Below, piece after piece: positions 17,743-52,569 of a stretch of DNA of 64,000 nt. A program made the translations under genes and the position numbers. This DNA is from Thermoplasmata archaeon (GTDB lineage Archaea; Thermoplasmatota; Thermoplasmata; GCA-020350865), in NCBI GenBank assembly GCA_020348445.1, contig CP070751.1, positions 4,985,087-5,049,086 of the forward strand, read 5' to 3'. The notes beneath the pieces are model-generated. The model did no database searches. It worked only from the letters and a program-made list of their open reading frames with translations, and had not been told where the DNA came from. Numbering within the stretch: position 1 is the stretch's first letter; each line of letters starts with the position of its first letter.

Positions 17743-17845
17743 GCCGGGGTGACAGAGAGGCTATGTGGCGGACTGCAGATCCGCAGACGGGAGTTCAAAT
17801 GTCTTGCCCCAATTTGGAGCGGACTTGAAAATCTCCCCCCCGGCT
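17743..17845 (+). tRNA. tRNA-Cys(GCA) with a 32-nt intron in the T-loop (about 17800-17831)
   Basis: Acceptor GCCGGGG/CCCCGGC; anticodon arm GCGGA-CTGCAGA-TCCGC; T-stem GGGAG/CTCCC separated by 39 nt instead of 7; U73 discriminator; CCA not encoded. Confidence 0.9.
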
Positions 17846-45000: not shown

Positions 45001-45269
45001 GTAATTTCGGTTCAGGGTATAGTGGATGGATTATTAATGCTTGGTGATAGAGTGCCAAAAAATTAGTTATATCAAAATCGTTGCTAATTCAGCCAATCCA
45101 ATATTTTATTATCTAGATTGTCGAGTGTTTTTTTCTATTTACCGCCAGTAATTTTCCCTTAATAATGCAAAGTTTTATAATAATATATATAATTCCCCCT
45201 ATCCCCCACAAAACAAGGAAAAAAACCAAGGGTAAGTTAAAAAAAACATATTATGTTCATGGTGATAGA

Positions 45270-47588
45270 ATGAAGACAATAGTATGGGCCAATGAAGTGG
45301 ATAAAAAGAGCATTCCTCAGGTGGGAGGAAAAGGAGCAAACTTAGGAGAGATGTTGAATGTTGATTTACCAATTCCGCAGGCTTTTATTGTGACTGCGGA
45401 TGCGTTCGAGCATTTTATTACGACAGTTGGCATCAAAGACGAGATAATCAATATCCTTTCCAAGGTCAAGGTTGACGACGAAAAAAGCTTGACCTCTAGC
45501 TCCAAAGCCGTAAGAGAGGTTGTAAGAAGTGCGAAGATTCCTTGGAATCTGGAAGTAGACATAGTAGGAGCATACAAGAAATTAAGCGAGATAGCAGGGG
45601 ACAAGGAAACGTTCGTTGCTGTTCGGTCCAGCGCCACAGCAGAGGACCTACCTGAAGCCTCATTTGCAGGCCAGCAGGAGACATTCCTGAATGTGCATAC
45701 CAAAGAGGATCTGTTGGACAAGGTAAGAGAATGCTGGGGATCTCTTTACACACCAAGAGCAATATTTTACAGGGAGAAGCAGGGCTTTGCCCATGAGGAT
45801 GTCAAGTTGGCTGTCGTGGTTCAGAGAATGGTCCACTCAGAGGTCTCAGGTGTGATGTTCTCTTCTGATCCCAGTACAGGTGCTCCAGAGGTTTTAATAG
45901 AGGCCGGTTTCGGGCTTGGTGAGGCCATCGTGGGGGGACAGATCACCCCTGACACATACAAGGTTTCGCAGGACATCTTGGAGATACTGGCAAAGAAGGT
46001 CTCCAAACAGACCTGGATGTACGCAAAAAATGAGGCTGGCGACACCCAAAAGATCGAGATTCCCGAGGAGTACCAACAAGCACAGAAACTATCAGACGAG
46101 CAGATCATTGCCCTAGCAGAGGTCGGGGTACGCATAGAACGCCATTACAACGAACCAATGGACATAGAATGGTGTATAGAGGACAGCGACATATACATAG
46201 TTCAGGCTCGACCTGTTACAACCATCAGAGAATCTGCACCAGCCGAGGCAAAAGAAGAGGACCGTGCAGAGACCAAAGAGTTAAACGTTTTGACAAAGGG
46301 AATGCCCGCCTCCCCAGGAATCGCAAGTGGGTCTGTCAGGCTTATCGCAGACGAGACAGAGCTAGAAAAGATAAAGGAAGGAGACATACTCGTTACAGTG
46401 ATGACCACACCTGACATGGTACCTGCAATGAGAAGGGCTAACGCAATTGTTACTGACGAAGGAGGTATGACCTGTCACGCCGCTATTGTCTCAAGGGAGC
46501 TGCAGATCCCGTGCATAGTGGGAACCACGGATGCCACGCAGGTCCTTTCTGATGAGATGGAGATCACCGTGGACGCAGACAAAGGCAGGGTCTACGAGGG
46601 AATAATAAAGATGAAGGGCAAGGCAAAGGAAGAGGTTGCAGCAGCAGGTGTAGTGGCATCTTATGTTCCTATAACAGCCACGAAGGTCTATATGAACCTG
46701 GCGGTGCCCAGTCTCGGGGAGAAGTATTCGAAGCTCCCTGCGGACGGTGTGGGGCTCTTTCGAATTGAACTTGCACTTACCGACGATATTGGTGAACATC
46801 CCATGAACTTCGTTAAGGAGGGCAGGGAACAGGAGTTTATAGACAAACTGGCTGAGGCTATACAACAAGTTGCCCAACCCATGTTCCCAAGACCAGTTGT
46901 GGTAAGAACATCAGATTTCAGAACACATGAATTCAGGGGCCTTAAAGGGGGAGATGAAATCGAGCCTGTTGAGGAGAATCCGTTTATTGGCTGGCGCGGC
47001 TGTTCCAAGTACGTATCCACATACGAGCCCGCTTTCAGACTGGAGATTCGGGCACTGAAGAAGGTCCGAGAGGAATTTGGTCTAAAGAATGTATACATGA
47101 TGGTGCCCTTCGTCAGGTTGCCCAGTGAGCTTAAAAGGATCAACGAACTTCTGGAGGAGGAAGGACTGAAAAGAGACAACGATTTCAAATTCTGGATGAT
47201 GGCCGAAGTACCTTCCAACATATTAATGGTGAAGGAATTTGCACAGTACTGCGATGGTTTCTCCATCGGCTCCAACGATCTCACCATGCTGATTATGGGC
47301 GCCGACAGGGATTCTCAGATTCTAGGCAACTTGGGTTACTTCGACGAGCGAATACCTGCCGTGCAAAGGGCTATTGCCATGCTTGTAAAAGAGGCCCATG
47401 AAGAGGGAAAGACTGTGTCCATCTGCGGGCAGGGTCCTTCTGTATATCCGGAGTTCACTGAGTTTTTAGTGAAGTGTGGCATCGACAGCATCAGTGTGAA
47501 TCCAGACACAGTGGAGAACACAAAAAGACTGGTTGCAAGTGTGGAGCAGAAGATGCTGTTGCAGAGGGTCAGAAAACTAGAGGATTGA
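45270..47588 (+). CDS. ppsA: Phosphoenolpyruvate synthase (pyruvate, water dikinase)
   Basis: VGGKGANLGEM, AVRSSATAEDLPEASFAGQQET, TCHAAIVSRE and FSIGSNDLT motifs; GGTGA SD before ATG 45270. Confidence 0.97.
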   Translation: MKTIVWANEVDKKSIPQVGGKGANLGEMLNVDLPIPQAFIVTADAFEHFITTVGIKDEIINILSKVKVDDEKSLTSSSKAVREVVRSAKIPWNLEVDIVGAYKKLSEIAGDKETFVAVRSSATAEDLPEASFAGQQETFLNVHTKEDLLDKVRECWGSLYTPRAIFYREKQGFAHEDVKLAVVVQRMVHSEVSGVMFSSDPSTGAPEVLIEAGFGLGEAIVGGQITPDTYKVSQDILEILAKKVSKQTWMYAKNEAGDTQKIEIPEEYQQAQKLSDEQIIALAEVGVRIERHYNEPMDIEWCIEDSDIYIVQARPVTTIRESAPAEAKEEDRAETKELNVLTKGMPASPGIASGSVRLIADETELEKIKEGDILVTVMTTPDMVPAMRRANAIVTDEGGMTCHAAIVSRELQIPCIVGTTDATQVLSDEMEITVDADKGRVYEGIIKMKGKAKEEVAAAGVVASYVPITATKVYMNLAVPSLGEKYSKLPADGVGLFRIELALTDDIGEHPMNFVKEGREQEFIDKLAEAIQQVAQPMFPRPVVVRTSDFRTHEFRGLKGGDEIEPVEENPFIGWRGCSKYVSTYEPAFRLEIRALKKVREEFGLKNVYMMVPFVRLPSELKRINELLEEEGLKRDNDFKFWMMAEVPSNILMVKEFAQYCDGFSIGSNDLTMLIMGADRDSQILGNLGYFDERIPAVQRAIAMLVKEAHEEGKTVSICGQGPSVYPEFTEFLVKCGIDSISVNPDTVENTKRLVASVEQKMLLQRVRKLED

Positions 47589-47743: not shown

Positions 47744-49021
47744 ATGAATATGGAAAAATCATCTAAGATATCTGGGTTCTACAAGTTGAGCCCAAAGGAG
47801 AGATTGGAGAAGATTAAGGATTTTTGTGACTTAACTGAGGAGGAGATTGTTGCACTAGAAAAAACAGGTTCCCTTGACATGGAGCAGGCGGACAGGATGA
47901 TAGAGAACGTTGTTGGTACCTTTGAGTTGCCTGTGGGTATAGCCGTGAACTTCCAAATCAATGGCAAGGACTACCTGATCCCCATGGCCATCGAGGAACC
48001 TTCAGTTGTTGCAGCGGCCTCAAACGCCGCTAAGATGGCGCGGCCGAAGGGAGGATTTCAGACAAGCAATACAGGTCCTATAATGATCGGGCAGATCCAG
48101 CTTGTGAACATCAGGGATCCCTACGGCGCCAAGATGACGATTTTGGCTCACAAGGATGAGATTCTGAAATTGGCAAATGAGCAGGACCCAGTGCTCGTAA
48201 AATTCGGAGGAGGAGCCAAAGACCTTGAGGTCAGGGTCGTGGACACGATCAAGGGTCCAATGGTGGTAAACCATCTCCTTGTTGACTGCAGGGATGCCAT
48301 GGGTGCCAATGCCGTGAACACCATGGCTGAAGCGGTGGCACCCTTAATAGAGAAGATAACTGGAGGTAGAGTATATCTCAGGATAATATCTAACCTAGCA
48401 ATCTACAGACTCGCAAGGGCGAAAGCTGTATTTGAAAAGGAGGGCCTAGGGGGCGAGGATGTAGTGGATGGTGTTATTGAAGCGTACAGCCTGGCGGCGG
48501 CTGATCCCTATAGATGTGCCACCCACAACAAGGGAATAATGAACGGTGTTTCGGCTGTGGTCAGGGCAACTGGCAACGACACAAGGGCTGTTGAAGCGGG
48601 AGCTCATTCATACGCATCCATATCAGGTCATTATTCACCTCTGACGGTGTGGGAGAAAAACGCAGACGGTGATTTAGTCGGGACCATTGAGATTCCAACA
48701 GCGGTGGGTCTCATCGGTGGGGCAACGAAGACACATCCCACGGCAAAAGCGGCTGTTAAAATTCTTGGAGTGAAGACTGCACAGGAGCTTGGTGAGATTC
48801 TCGCTGCAGTTGGTCTTGCACAGAACCTGGGAGCATTAAGAGCCTTGGCGACCGAGGGAATTCAGAAGGGTCACATGGCATTGCATGCAAGGAATATAGC
48901 GATTATGGCGGGCGCTGGAAAAGATATCGTAGATGAGGTTGTCAAGAAGCTTGTTGAGAGGGGAAAGATAAGGGTGGACATCGCAAAGGAAATAATCGAT
49001 GAGATTACGAAGGGAAAATAG
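47744..49021 (+). CDS. mvaA: Class II (bacterial-type) HMG-CoA reductase
   Basis: [32 protein letters not shown] and [10 protein letters not shown] motifs. Confidence 0.95.
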
Positions 49022-49154
49022 TTACTACTCCAATTTTTTTTATATTTTTTTTTAGACAATCGAATATTGAAATAACGCTCACCTTCTTCCTCCACACGCT
49101 TTAGATTTTTCATATCGATATTTATTAGATTCTTAATTGACATAATGTCCTATG

Positions 49155-49218
49155 AAAAAAATAATGGAGCCGACGGGGAGATCTGAACCCGCCTTTTTCT
49201 TTGGGGCAAAAATCTCCG
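49155..49218 (-). repeat. Duplicate of the tRNA-Thr 3' end plus flank (att-like scar) preceded by a degenerate T-arm/intron-like sequence
   Basis: AAAAAAATAATGGAGCCGACGGGGAGAT is identical at 49155-49182 and 49456-49483 (28 bp, offset 301). Confidence 0.85.
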
Positions 49219-49465
49219 TTGTCGTGGAAAACATTGCTCTTGATACTAATTATGTTTTCCACTATACAGTGGAGGACAGTCATCGTTTGCTCTCAATATC
49301 TGTCCACCACGATGGCTCGGGCGCCCAAAGAAACCTTGGGAAATCAAAGATTTCCCGAGGCCTTGAAAAACATCAGTTTTTCATCGGAACATGGGGGAAA
49401 AAGAAACTCGCCCTCACCTACTCGATTTTTGCATTATCTTATTCGGTAATCTTTAAAAAAAATAA

Positions 49466-49630
49466 TGGAGCCGACGGGGAGATTCGAACTCTCGACCTGC
49501 TGATGTCTTTCCCTCGACCTTTCTTTCATGTGGAACTTTAAATTATATTTACATCTTTTTTTTCATTTACGTTTTCTTAAAGGGTCGAGGGTTACAAGTC
49601 AGCCGCTCAACCGGGCTAAGCTACGTCGGC
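49466..49630 (-). tRNA. tRNA-Thr(UGU) with an 88-nt intron at canonical position 37/38 (49505-49592); CCA encoded
   Basis: Acceptor GCCGACG/CGTCGGC; D-arm GCTT/GAGC; anticodon stem GCTGA/TCAGC with loop CT-TGT-AA; TTCGAAT T-loop; intron closed by CCCTCGACC/GGTCGAGGG forming a BHB-like junction. Confidence 0.93.
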
Positions 49631-49789
49631 TTATGTAATTGATGTTAGTAGATTAGCACTGGCAAGTGGGGACGGTAGGTCACCACGGAGTACCTGACTG
49701 GGTCATCCGGCATATTTTGATCAGACCAGGCAGGTGACTAGTTGGGGTCTGAAAGGCCACCACGAAGTACCAGGCTAAGCTACATCGGC
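49631..49789 (-). ncRNA. Two tandem ~80-nt units starting as tRNA 5' fragments with a shared non-tRNA trailer (candidate split-tRNA pieces or relics)
   Basis: Unit A (49789-49712) begins GCCGATGTAGCTTAGCCTGGT, 19/21 identical to the tRNA-Thr 5' end. Unit B (49711-49631) begins GCCGGATGACCCAGTCAGGT. Both continue GGTACTYCGTGGTGRCCT...CCCCA. Confidence 0.5.
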
Positions 49790-49987
49790 ATATTGTTGTA
49801 ATTTTTTTATTAACATAAAGCCAGATTTTATGTTTAAATATTTTTCCCTCTAATAATATACGTAGGAAATAAATCTTCCCCCCGCATTTTTTTATCATCG
49901 TAAAATAATCGTAAAACACCTGTTTAAAGCCAATAACGAAAGGTTTAAGAGGGAAAAGGGTATACGACGTCGATGAGGTGAATAAAT

Positions 49988-50152
49988 ATGGTAGTAAGGA
50001 AATCAAAGGTAAAGGAGTATGTAGGAGCAGACTTCCGTGTATCAGCAGATTTCTACGATGCCTTAAATAAACATGTAGAAGCCACCTTAAGAGAGGCAAA
50101 GAACAGGGCAAAATTGAACGACCGAAAAACTCTTAGACCTCATGATCTGTAA
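49988..50152 (+). CDS. Minimal histone-fold protein, 54 aa (lacks helix alpha3; face-to-face/Bd0055-like type); absent from the ORF track
   Basis: MVVRKSKVKEYVGADFRVSADFYDALNKHVEATLREAKNRAKLNDRKTLRPHDL; RV L1 loop, long alpha2, RKTxxxxD L2 signature; GAGGTGA SD; T-rich terminator after the stop. Confidence 0.9.
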   Translation: MVVRKSKVKEYVGADFRVSADFYDALNKHVEATLREAKNRAKLNDRKTLRPHDL

Positions 50153-50282
50153 ATGGGGGAGAAATGGGGGAGAATTTTTCTCCTATTTTCTTTTTTTATT
50201 TATTAACATCTCTTTTTTTAAAACTTTTATCTATTCAAATCAGCGTAATCTTATTAAGCCATTATAGTCTTATCAGCCAAAT

Positions 50283-50780
50283 ATGAAGATCGGCGACCTC
50301 GAGGGTAAAGGCAAGCTATACGACGAGGAAGGCGAAGCTATCCTTCAAAGTGATGAACACATTAAAAAAAGATTTTCGGGTTGGTGTATAAACTGGGCAA
50401 CCAGGAAGAAGGGCAAGATTCACGGTATCATGAACTTTGAAGGTGAAGGAGAGTTCATAATAACTGACAGACGTTTGATATTCCTGAGAAAGCCAAGGGA
50501 ATTTCCCCCCGGGTATTGGGCAGTGGGTAGAGAGGCAGGGGGCCTCGTGGGCGATGAGTTACCTGGAGGAGGTGACTGGCAGTATGCCCTGGCAAGATCC
50601 AATAGGGCAAAAGAAAAGGGCGGACTGGAATTTTTGGTGATTGATTTTAACGAGATAAAAAGGATAAACATAGGTAAGGATACAGCAAAAATCTTTATCG
50701 AGAATGATGATAAATTTCAATTGATAATCGACAACAATTCAGGGGAAATACTTGCAGAGTTCTTTGGTGAAGAATCTTAA
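50283..50780 (+). CDS. Hypothetical protein, possibly PH/GRAM-like fold
   Basis: GEFIITDRRLIFL and IDFNEIKRINI patterns typical of PH-like beta strands. Confidence 0.65.
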   Translation: MKIGDLEGKGKLYDEEGEAILQSDEHIKKRFSGWCINWATRKKGKIHGIMNFEGEGEFIITDRRLIFLRKPREFPPGYWAVGREAGGLVGDELPGGGDWQYALARSNRAKEKGGLEFLVIDFNEIKRINIGKDTAKIFIENDDKFQLIIDNNSGEILAEFFGEES

Positions 50781-50802: not shown

Positions 50803-52569
50803 TTAATCCTCTTTCGTTTTCAAAACCTCGGGCAGCAATTTTAAAAGCTTGTACACTTTATCGCGCACCAAATTTGGATCTGGATTCTCTTTCGATGGAT
50901 GTGCCACAGTGTTTCTCATCTCCCTAACCTGGTGCATCAATGTTTCGACCTTATGCTTCCAAAGATCAGGATCTTTTAAAAAGAGATATCCATTGTGATT
51001 GATGATATGAATACAGCTGCCAAGGGAAAGAACATCCCAGCTCTTCTCCCAATCCTTCTTTCTGGTGTTGATGTGACCGTGATTTTCACCCAAAAGGATG
51101 GTCACTCCCTTTGGTAGGAGTTTTTTTAGCTTCTCTCTGATATAAACCTCAACAGCATTGAAGTAGACCAGTAGAATCGCCTTTTTTCCGGAATCGGGAA
51201 AATCCTTTCTTGATAGAACGCTGTCCGAGGTTTCTGCCTCACAGAGGAGGGCATAGGCCTCGGAAAATCGCTTTAACTCTTCGAGATTCTTTTTGTCCAA
51301 TCTCTTCTTTACGATCTCCTCGCCGGCTTCGATATCGACTATCTTGCGTTTTACCAGGTCTTCTGCCAGTATTTTGTAGAGTTCATCCAGTTCATAAAGA
51401 GATTTGAATTTGGAGTCCACCCCTATCTTATCCTTTTCTATTGTTTCGATTTGGTCCCTCAATCGATCATATTCAATGAAGATATCACGCTGTGTATCAA
51501 ACAATCCAAACGGTGATCCAGGCACAGGCCGCAGGGAGGTAGCCTTTAGCTTTTGTGCTGCCTTCCTTCTCTCCTCTTTCACTTTTTCCAGACCTAAATT
51601 TAACTCGTGAAAAACGAGGTGATACAGCCCAACGAGTGCCCCTTTATTTTCTGTGTAAACAATGAATTTAAGCTTAGAGGGAGCATCGTTTTTTCCTTTT
51701 GCCGTTACCACAAACTCTAAAGCGTACTTCATATTGTTTTTATCCAGGGAATAGAATCTTGTTATCGACTTATATGGCTTCTCATCTTTCACCTCACTTG
51801 AGACCATGTAAATTGCGATATCCTTGATGGCATCGAGAACGAGATCACTGCATTTCTCACCTGTTAGGGGAACGCTTGAGACTGTTTCCTCTGCAGATTC
51901 AAGTGTGCTGATTACGTTTTGCCATTCTCCTGCTTCGATCTCCTGCTCCTTCAATTGCGGCCATGCGATTTTTATTGTTTTAGGATTGAGAACTTTTTCC
52001 ACGTACTCATCGATACCGGGATTGTAATAGTTCACGGTTCCGAGCACATCTGCTTCACCAGATTCCCCTCTTCTCGACTTGAGCTTGAATTTTATGGTTG
52101 CACTATCATAGGGTCTGATTACAGAGATGCTCTTTTTCTCTTCGTCAATGGAAAATATGTCCTGTGACAGATAGGTTTTTGCCATAACATCGCTTAAAGG
52201 GAAGGCTGTTTTATTATCCACTGTAACCTTGAACAAGAAATTCACGTCATTGTACCCGAGGGCTGGGGTAATTTTCACATCTCCTTTTACCTGCTCCCCA
52301 AATTCTTCGAACCGAGAGGCCCTAGTCACCTTTTTACCCATGACAACATAGTAAAAAAACGAGGCAAAAATAATAATGCCTAAGATAATTTCCCCATACC
52401 ATATGTATGGGATCAAATCATGATCGATACCCTCGGTGGGTGATGGGGAATCGTAAATATAATACAGGAATATATTAAGTTGAATAATGTTGAGGATAAT
52501 TACGACTAATAATATCCAAATCGCAACCTTCTTTAAGGACATCAATCCGCCTCTTTTTTTACCGAACAT
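50803..52569 (-). CDS. Membrane-anchored protein: 2 TM, Ig-like sandwich, alpha/beta platform-like domain, coiled coil, C-terminal Swt1-like HEPN domain
   Basis: N-terminal hydrophobic pair; VEVYIREKL...LSLGSCIHII...MRNTVAHP (RxxxxH). Confidence 0.75.
   Translation of the reverse strand: MFGKKRGGLMSLKKVAIWILLVVIILNIIQLNIFLYYIYDSPSPTEGIDHDLIPYIWYGEIILGIIIFASFFYYVVMGKKVTRASRFEEFGEQVKGDVKITPALGYNDVNFLFKVTVDNKTAFPLSDVMAKTYLSQDIFSIDEEKKSISVIRPYDSATIKFKLKSRRGESGEADVLGTVNYYNPGIDEYVEKVLNPKTIKIAWPQLKEQEIEAGEWQNVISTLESAEETVSSVPLTGEKCSDLVLDAIKDIAIYMVSSEVKDEKPYKSITRFYSLDKNNMKYALEFVVTAKGKNDAPSKLKFIVYTENKGALVGLYHLVFHELNLGLEKVKEERRKAAQKLKATSLRPVPGSPFGLFDTQRDIFIEYDRLRDQIETIEKDKIGVDSKFKSLYELDELYKILAEDLVKRKIVDIEAGEEIVKKRLDKKNLEELKRFSEAYALLCEAETSDSVLSRKDFPDSGKKAILLVYFNAVEVYIREKLKKLLPKGVTILLGENHGHINTRKKDWEKSWDVLSLGSCIHIINHNGYLFLKDPDLWKHKVETLMHQVREMRNTVAHPSKENPDPNLVRDKVYKLLKLLPEVLKTKED

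Follow-up and report, generated by a model that had tools for sequence, protein, structure and literature searches.

Fold-back repeats that copy tRNA-gene ends, found upstream of a tRNA-Thr(UGU) gene and in other tRNA-gene flanks of a Thermoplasmata archaeon

The DNA analyzed here, called the window below, is a stretch of 64,000 nucleotides from the single 5.16-Mb contig of a Thermoplasmata archaeon (genome G000). It was compared with the relatives G001 to G005, of which G001 is a sister genome also available as a single contig. At the tRNA-Thr(UGU) gene on the minus strand of the window, the following features are found.

49797–49825, minus strand: AT-rich, TATA-like promoter block, recognized by its AT content and by homologous blocks in relatives
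49712–49789, minus strand: unit A (78 nt), recognized by its match to the tRNA-Thr 5′ end and by the leave-out model described below
49769–49789, minus strand: head of unit A
49740–49764, minus strand: core hairpin of unit A
about 49721–49736, minus strand: Ser-type tail of unit A
49712–49720, minus strand: linker of unit A
49631–49711, minus strand: unit B (81 nt), recognized by the leave-out model and by its match to a unit in G001
49690–49711, minus strand: Ser-type head of unit B
49665–49687, minus strand: core hairpin of unit B
about 49648–49664, minus strand: Thr-type tail of unit B
49631–49647, minus strand: linker of unit B
49469–49630, minus strand: complete tRNA-Thr(UGU) gene, recognized by Rfam RF00005 and ARAGORN
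49155–49330, minus strand: downstream module (earlier called a 3′ scar) with two hairpins and copies of the tRNA 3′ end; G001 has an equivalent
49268–49311: CGTGG...CCACT hairpin of the downstream module
49223–49263: second such hairpin of the module, in the opposite orientation
49155–49188: direct copy, within the module, of the tRNA from the T-loop to the 3′ end, with a T-run

On the minus strand, unit A, unit B and the tRNA start at 49789, 49711 and 49630, and GCCG is found at each start. The spacings of 78 and 81 nt agree with the original prediction, which had placed two GCCG-starting units at intervals of about 80 nt between the promoter and tRNA-Thr. The head of unit A is identical with nucleotides 1–21 of tRNA-Thr at 19 of 21 sites, the figure that had been claimed. 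Both of its changes are harmless, since C6>U keeps pairing with G67 and the second change lies in the D-loop. The unit heads are in the sense orientation, 81 nt (B) and 159 nt (A) upstream of the adjacent Thr gene, and the tail of unit B is antisense to nucleotides 7–16 of the tRNA. It is also evident that neither unit has a 3′ acceptor strand, which had been noted before. Besides its direct 3′-end copy, the downstream module also contains part of the tRNA 3′ end in inverted orientation.

The tRNA-Thr(UGU) gene scores 44.7 bits against Rfam RF00005 (model positions 1–71) and is called Thr(tgt) with an intron by ARAGORN when introns are allowed. Its single intron of about 88–90 nt lies beside the anticodon (about 49504–49591), and its T-stem has one A·C mismatch. 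A default run of ARAGORN reports zero tRNAs in the whole window. In a search with Rfam at permissive thresholds over 49000–50400, the tRNA is the sole match, and no family is assigned to units A and B. Units and introns of this kind cause standard tRNA finders to miss or mislabel genes.

Units A and B belong to a lineage-specific family of small, non-coding fold-back repeats that flank tRNA genes. In its canonical form, a unit consists of a head, a hairpin, a tail and a linker, in that order. The head is a direct copy of the first 11–22 nucleotides of the neighboring tRNA, counted exactly from +1, the hairpin has an invariant foot (CGUGG/CCACU) and a covarying distal stem, the tail is reverse-complementary to the head, and the linker is 10–25 nt long. 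The 18-nt motif described earlier as shared by the two units is real, both units matching its degenerate pattern with 0 mismatches. The “trailer” that it was taken for is indeed common to A and B, but it is really the 5′ half of the conserved hairpin CGUGG...CCACU. This foot is invariant in 17 of 17 copies, and the 3′ foot of unit A carries one change (CAACU). In the alignment of the 17 units, 75.7% of the cells pair, compared with 35–55% when the partners are slid. Ten pairs change on both sides; these changes are found in the distal and outer stems, and the foot pairs are constant.

About 20 of the roughly 48 chromosomal tRNA genes have 1–3 copies of their own first 11 nucleotides upstream, 73–230 nt away, and about as many chromosomal genes have copies of their last 12 nucleotides downstream. 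A dense tRNA cluster at 4.64 Mb (17 tRNAs) has neither upstream nor downstream copies (0/17). Searching the 5.16-Mb genome with an nhmmer profile of the core yields 11 matches, at tRNA-upstream sites only. A covariance model (R1) yields 17 matches genome-wide, all in unit arrays, which precede Thr(UGU), Thr(CGU), three Ser genes, two Ala genes and Lys. We then built a second covariance model (R2) leaving out A and B. When both strands of the 64-kb window were searched with R2, B (23.5 bits, E = 9×10−6) and A (22.2 bits, E = 2.7×10−5) ranked first and second, well outside what chance would produce. The third match (18.4 bits, 46640–46694, minus strand) lies antisense within the gene of a PEP-utilising enzyme (45165–47588, plus strand) and probably resembles a unit by chance. 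Taken alone, a loose regular expression for the foot hairpin lacks specificity (61 matches, versus 52 in the reversed genome), but 20 of the 61 matches lie no more than 600 nt from a tRNA start, against an expected share of about 1%. No consistent C/D or ACA boxes are present across the units, and an identity as C/D-box or H/ACA guide RNAs was dropped. We found no description of such units in the literature searched, and a hairpin-repeat family that copies the ends of tRNA genes is apparently undescribed so far.

Both units at tRNA-Thr(UGU) are chimeric. Unit A joins a Thr head to a Ser-type core and tail. Its core and tail find their best match in a Ser(GGA) unit (36/53), and its tail matches a Ser-type tail that is common to two of the three Ser(GGA) units and complementary to the Ser D-loop. 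Unit B joins a Ser-type head to a core, tail and linker orthologous to those of the single unit in G001 (36/44 identical for core and tail, 12/17 for the linker); its linker also matches that of a Thr(CGU) unit (14/17). The head of B is no decayed Thr head; it is closest to Ser-type tRNA 5′ ends, matching a Ser(GGA) unit head at 16 of 21 sites and Thr heads at 13 of 21. Owing to this chimerism, head and tail are unpaired within each unit and pair crosswise. That is, in neither A nor B is the tail the reverse complement of its own head (fold energies of −16.5 and −15.6 kcal/mol, respectively), and pairing takes place between the head of A and the tail of B (Thr-type) and between the tail of A and the head of B (Ser-type). 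The compound structure of A and B reaches −46 kcal/mol (z = −1.92), which is only modestly better than shuffled sequence. The crosswise pairing would fit a nested or recombinant pair of units, and the simplest history would be that one period of a Ser-type array recombined into an older Thr unit. The head of the G001 unit resembles an A/B recombinant, and crossing-over between heads may thus have cost G001 one of its units.

A search of 151 class genomes found the foot type in this genus only (4 of 4 other genomes), plus two marginal matches. The R1 family counts 17 copies in G000, 5 in G001 and 1–2 in the draft genomes; it has expanded in the larger G000. At Thr(UGU), the number of units is two in G000, one in G001, one with a different core in G002 and zero in G004. 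As for the conservation of A and B in relatives, proposed earlier as a check, G001 keeps one unit orthologous to B in core, tail and linker, the core in G002 is different and G004 has no unit. G005, which belongs to another genus of the same order, has two 5′ units with other cores before Thr(GGU), so the architecture is distributed more widely than the foot type.

The units of Ala(UGC) and Ala(GGC) have one core within a species, and this core differs between species. Heads and 3′ copies also track species-specific changes of the tRNA, such as C13 in G002 or, in G004, A7 with its compensating partner U66. Judging from these comparisons, the dynamics of the units is one of concerted evolution and exchange between loci, for which reason compensatory-looking differences between species cannot be read as selection in place. 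Across four species the tails are near-identical and the linkers diverge freely. A scan of metagenomes gave 0 matches for the Thr-type unit and 14 for the Ala type; five contigs (four distinct) carry true units before tRNA-Ala, and the remaining Ala-type matches are chance matches in GC-rich coding DNA.

An octamer with 8 of 8 A+T lies about 24 nt upstream of the first base of unit A, and the best octamer before the tRNA itself has 6 of 8. By this crude composition test, an AT-rich box is present before A and none before B or tRNA-Thr(UGU). In other arrays as well, AT-rich boxes precede the first heads and not the unit-bearing tRNAs. In G004, where no unit is present, the homologous promoter block lies directly against the tRNA, and in G002 it lies directly against the unit. 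Before tRNA-Ala(UGC), the same promoter block is found ahead of the first of 1–3 units in four species and in metagenome contigs. The position of the block before the first unit would place the units inside the transcription unit, as a 5′ leader. One transcript, from a start whose position we infer, probably covers A, B and the tRNA. The resulting 160-nt leader would most likely be removed by RNase P, the RNA of which is present in the genome (184.8 bits), and would add nothing to the mature tRNA. The inverted repeat AACATAAA/TTTATGTT, which had been reported to overlap the promoter element, is absent as a conserved element from the sister genome G001 and so probably arose by chance.

The sequences show family membership, distribution, chimerism, copy-number differences and the lack of a split partner (see below), whereas spread by recombination, like co-transcription and removal by RNase P, is what we infer. 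We think it fairly probable that the units are selfish-like DNA repeats that recombine and ride passively in the 5′ leader. Unequal crossing-over between head copies would expand and contract the arrays, and the units would move between tRNA loci by ectopic recombination, with similar tRNA 5′ ends serving as the homology; alternatively, they might move by hairpin-dependent integration. The Ser-type repeat period that appears to sit within an older Thr-type unit at the Thr(UGU) locus would then be a record of exchange. A DNA repeat is further supported by the variation in copy number among close species, by the expansion in G000, by decayed and chimeric copies, and by the lack of units at over half of the tRNA genes and at Thr(UGU) of G004. 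In the stems, G·U pairs show no excess (8, versus 18 A·C), in a test weakened by the imperfect alignment of the outer stems, and the foot hairpin occurs in both orientations within the 3′ module. Taken together, these two observations seem to fit a DNA palindrome better than a sense-strand RNA. The view of the units as neutral tandem-duplication debris, foreseen as a possible outcome, comes close, but it misses that they form a structured family with an invariant foot and with parts exchanged between tRNA loci. What argues against passive repeats is that the foot is invariant and the tails are conserved while the linkers drift, a constraint-like pattern that points to a foot-binding factor or an RNA role. 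It suggests that something recognizes the foot.

No mobilizing enzyme for the units was identified in G000, a further point against passive repeats, as is the only modestly stable fold of A and B together. A reverse-transcriptase-mediated origin was discarded, the genome having no RVT_1 match. G000 has IS200-type genes and one Y1-HTH gene (1865749–1866774); no such Y1-HTH gene was found in G001, which has units, and a RAYT-like mobilizer was discarded on this ground. Like REP, BIME and REPIN sequences and MITE-like palindromes, the units are short, non-coding, multi-copy and often tandem, and their numbers vary among close relatives. Unlike REP- or MITE-like sequences, they occur at tRNA genes only, with arms that are locus-specific and copied from the adjacent tRNA, and, unlike REP/RAYT systems, they have no consistently co-occurring Y1/RAYT transposase. 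Small circles with a target-mimicking stem can integrate via folded single-strand sites, as in CTX phage attP and integron attC. By analogy, a process of this kind would yield a direct copy, a hairpin, an inverted copy, a linker and a direct copy, as well as tandem arrays. The units differ from the attP/attC systems in that no recombinase has been identified, the element would be only about 75–95 nt long and the targets differ between tRNAs.

Alternatively, the units could be a functional structured leader RNA, in which the sense head and antisense tail act as a device for the folding or processing of the pre-tRNA. The head might draw the antisense tail off the real 5′ end of the tRNA, the hairpin might guard the 5′ end of the transcript, or the units might be decoys for RNase P, with the foot as a protein site. 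We consider this possible but rather unlikely. In its favor, the units are always on the tRNA strand and within the presumed transcript, the invariant foot is combined with a covarying distal stem, the tails and not the linkers are kept across species, and a tail can pair with its own head, the next head or the tRNA. Units are, however, missing from over half of the tRNA genes and, in G004, from this same Thr(UGU) gene, and the copy number ranges from 0 to 3 among close species. In neither A nor B do head and tail match, and a Ser-type B head lies before a Thr gene. Moreover, G·U pairs are not in excess, the foot hairpin is also found reversed downstream, and the compensatory changes between species can be explained by the exchange of units among loci.

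It has long been asked how introns arise at unusual sites in archaeal tRNA genes and how such genes come to be split, and transposition has been proposed for their non-canonical introns. The genus studied here offers dozens of gene-less hairpin modules of 75–95 nt that copy tRNA ends and share a hairpin and a layout with real introns. tRNA-Thr(GGU) (G000 5066819–5066921, plus strand) has a 33-nt D-loop intron, as a result of which tRNA finders mislabel or only partly match the gene. Exon nucleotides 1–21, a hairpin and a tail antisense to the D-arm follow each other in the order of a unit, and the intron folds as a helix, a 3-nt bulge, a helix, a 3-nt bulge and a helix. A D-loop intron at Thr(GGU) is present in G000 and in G003 (45 nt, with a different hairpin) and absent from G002, and G005 has its two 5′ units instead. 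Downstream of Thr(GGU) are two modules, each of which starts with a copy of tRNA nucleotides 1–9.

T-loop introns show further likeness. tRNA-Glu(UUC) (G000 668241–668389, minus strand), missed by both ARAGORN and Rfam, has an anticodon-side intron and a T-loop insert of about 48 nt that holds a CGTGG...CCACT hairpin and a partial T-arm repeat; upstream of it are two foot hairpins with non-tRNA arms. tRNA-Arg(GCG) (G000 5061858–5061955, plus strand), also missed by the finders, has a T-loop intron of about 29 nt. Downstream of the gene lie two modules in tandem, both containing a foot hairpin, another hairpin and a copy of the final 15 nucleotides; these copies begin about where the T-loop intron ends. 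Thus, the units resemble non-canonical D- and T-loop introns of archaeal tRNAs in having a 5′ exon, a hairpin and an antisense tail, with the foot hairpin occurring in a T-loop intron. They are unlike introns in that a linker and a whole tRNA come after the unit, which lacks bulge-helix-bulge geometry. The sole splicing-endonuclease gene in G000 (548082–548867, minus strand) encodes 363 aa with two catalytic-type domains, which we take to be the alpha-prime-2 form. This form is usually held to be strict for canonical introns. G000 carries D-loop and T-loop introns despite its alpha-prime-2-like endonuclease.

These likenesses bear on whether the units derive from non-canonical tRNA introns or are another state of them. 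A 5′ unit might be a former 5′ exon and D-loop intron that stayed in place after an intron-free 5′ end had formed anew downstream, or, conversely, units might turn into introns upon loss of the duplicated end. Relics of introns, or leader RNAs mimicking tRNA, had been offered as fallbacks in the original prediction. They survive in modified form, in that the units are leaders bearing 5′ ends and have the layout of a D-loop intron. Support for an intron origin comes from the unit-like order of the Thr(GGU) intron and its distribution among the four genomes, from the hairpin inside the Glu(UUC) T-loop intron, from the coincidence of the Arg(GCG) copies with the intron end, and from the many heads that stop at nucleotides 17–22. 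We nevertheless find it quite improbable. The folds of the units show an asymmetric internal loop rather than two staggered 3-nt bulges, with no bulge-helix-bulge seen, and each unit continues into a linker and a new copy from +1, not into the rest of the exon as a D-loop bulge-helix-bulge intron would. The heads of Ala, Gln, Tyr and Leu stop at nucleotides 11–13, where no intron is seen. There is also no reverse transcriptase for a cDNA-mediated loss of introns, and we found no orthologs whose shared core serves as an intron in one genome but as a unit in the other.

A different connection, which we put forward tentatively and with a limited chance of being right, is that flank units and D- and T-loop introns represent one element in two states. 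A hairpin module, its arms copied from the end of a tRNA, would insert or recombine beside that end; loss of the original end would create a new intron, and its retention would leave a leader or trailer unit. If so, this would be a concrete route of intron gain in archaeal tRNA genes that needs no reverse transcriptase and can be tested on closely related genomes, and the chimeric A/B pair would capture modules in the course of exchange between tRNA loci. Should the link to introns be false, the family remains an unusual repeat that copies its target.

To our knowledge, the sole concrete model to date for odd introns and splitting invokes integrase-bearing plasmids (PMC3293823), and an upstream direct repeat of the tRNA 5′ end before a reconstituted tRNA is the footprint of archaeal integrative elements. 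The units could accordingly be classical scars, left when an integrase-bearing plasmid or virus entered the 5′ part of the tRNA, duplicated it as attL and attR, and was later deleted almost entirely. Like scars of the pNOB8 or SSV type, they place a 5′-end copy upstream of an intact, reconstituted tRNA, and their direct repeats match this footprint. In Caldiarchaeum subterraneum, a tRNA-Thr 5′ fragment lies 1.8 kb upstream of tRNA-Thr(GGU), which was explained by the integration of a recombinase-bearing element that also brought an intron (Sugahara et al. 2012, PMC3293823), a case that likewise involves Thr and intron gain; tRNA fragments from integrated elements are also treated in PMC9897764.

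For the units described here, we hold such an origin to be very unlikely. They have inserts of 55–60 nt with no recombinase gene, they are tandemly repeated, and they recur at about 20 tRNA genes. At the Thr(UGU) locus, only 57–60 nt of non-coding sequence lie between heads. In general, no integrase or other element gene is found between head and tRNA, the inserts measuring 55–100 nt at about 20 loci, and the scars would need about 20 independent near-total deletions with the same outcome. No distant copy of the Thr(UGU) head was found in the G000 genome, nor, for this gene, any large head-bounded element, and the inverted copy and the shared conserved hairpin are left unexplained.

The central claim of the original prediction, that A and/or B are D-loop-split 5′ pieces of a tRNA joined in trans to a separate 3′ piece, is rejected, on the sequence evidence, as scarcely credible, with no partner found, the Thr set complete and an intact gene adjoining. 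The likeness to the split tRNA genes of Nanoarchaeum equitans and Caldivirga maquilingensis is a superficial one, consisting of a tRNA-like 5′ portion followed by a GC-rich non-tRNA stretch. Unlike in those genes, this stretch pairs with itself as a self-contained hairpin, no isoacceptor is missing and a complete gene lies directly downstream. The pattern of the shared motif was searched on both strands of the 5.16-Mb genome with up to 3 mismatches, and no complementary partner near a tRNA 3′ piece was found; the matches are A, B, one more sense unit before another tRNA, and a chance-level rest equal to the control number. Similarly, blastn-short with both trailers against the whole genome gave no antisense GC-rich match near any tRNA 3′ piece.

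Nor is any Thr anticodon missing, a point that had been proposed for checking. Thr(UGU), Thr(CGU) (G000 4743739–4743810) and Thr(GGU) are all encoded as whole genes, with a second Thr(UGU) copy in the tRNA cluster of G000, and the complete set leaves no isoacceptor for the pieces to supply. The tRNA-Thr(UGU) gene adjoining unit B has its own 5′ end, unit B lacks an AT-rich box by the crude composition test above, and the identical architecture precedes about 20 complete tRNA genes.

We also made several observations beside the units. The tRNA cluster at 4640570–4643566 of G000 is a dense group of about 17–25 low-scoring tRNA genes, including Glu(UUC), Cys and Gly(UCC) besides the second Thr(UGU), and has the appearance of a tRNA array carried by a mobile element or virus. 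Within the window, a weak tRNA match (17746–17811, plus strand; 29.4 bits, at the Rfam threshold) has a GCA (Cys) anticodon loop and a poor T-arm, and could be a degenerate or intron-bearing tRNA-Cys. A 54-aa ORF with a faint histone-fold match (49988–50152, plus strand) diverges from the tRNA promoter, and its start region is kept in G001, G002 and G004. About 1 kb from the tRNA locus, a 588-aa ORF (50803–52569, minus strand) has a C-terminal Swt1-like HEPN domain (E = 1.4×10−6) and is possibly an RNase or a defense protein. Elsewhere in G000, a copy of the last 18 nucleotides of tRNA-Lys is found at 2798338, on the same strand and 2.4 kb downstream of tRNA-Lys (2800753–2800906), where it possibly marks a small integrated element with att-like repeats.
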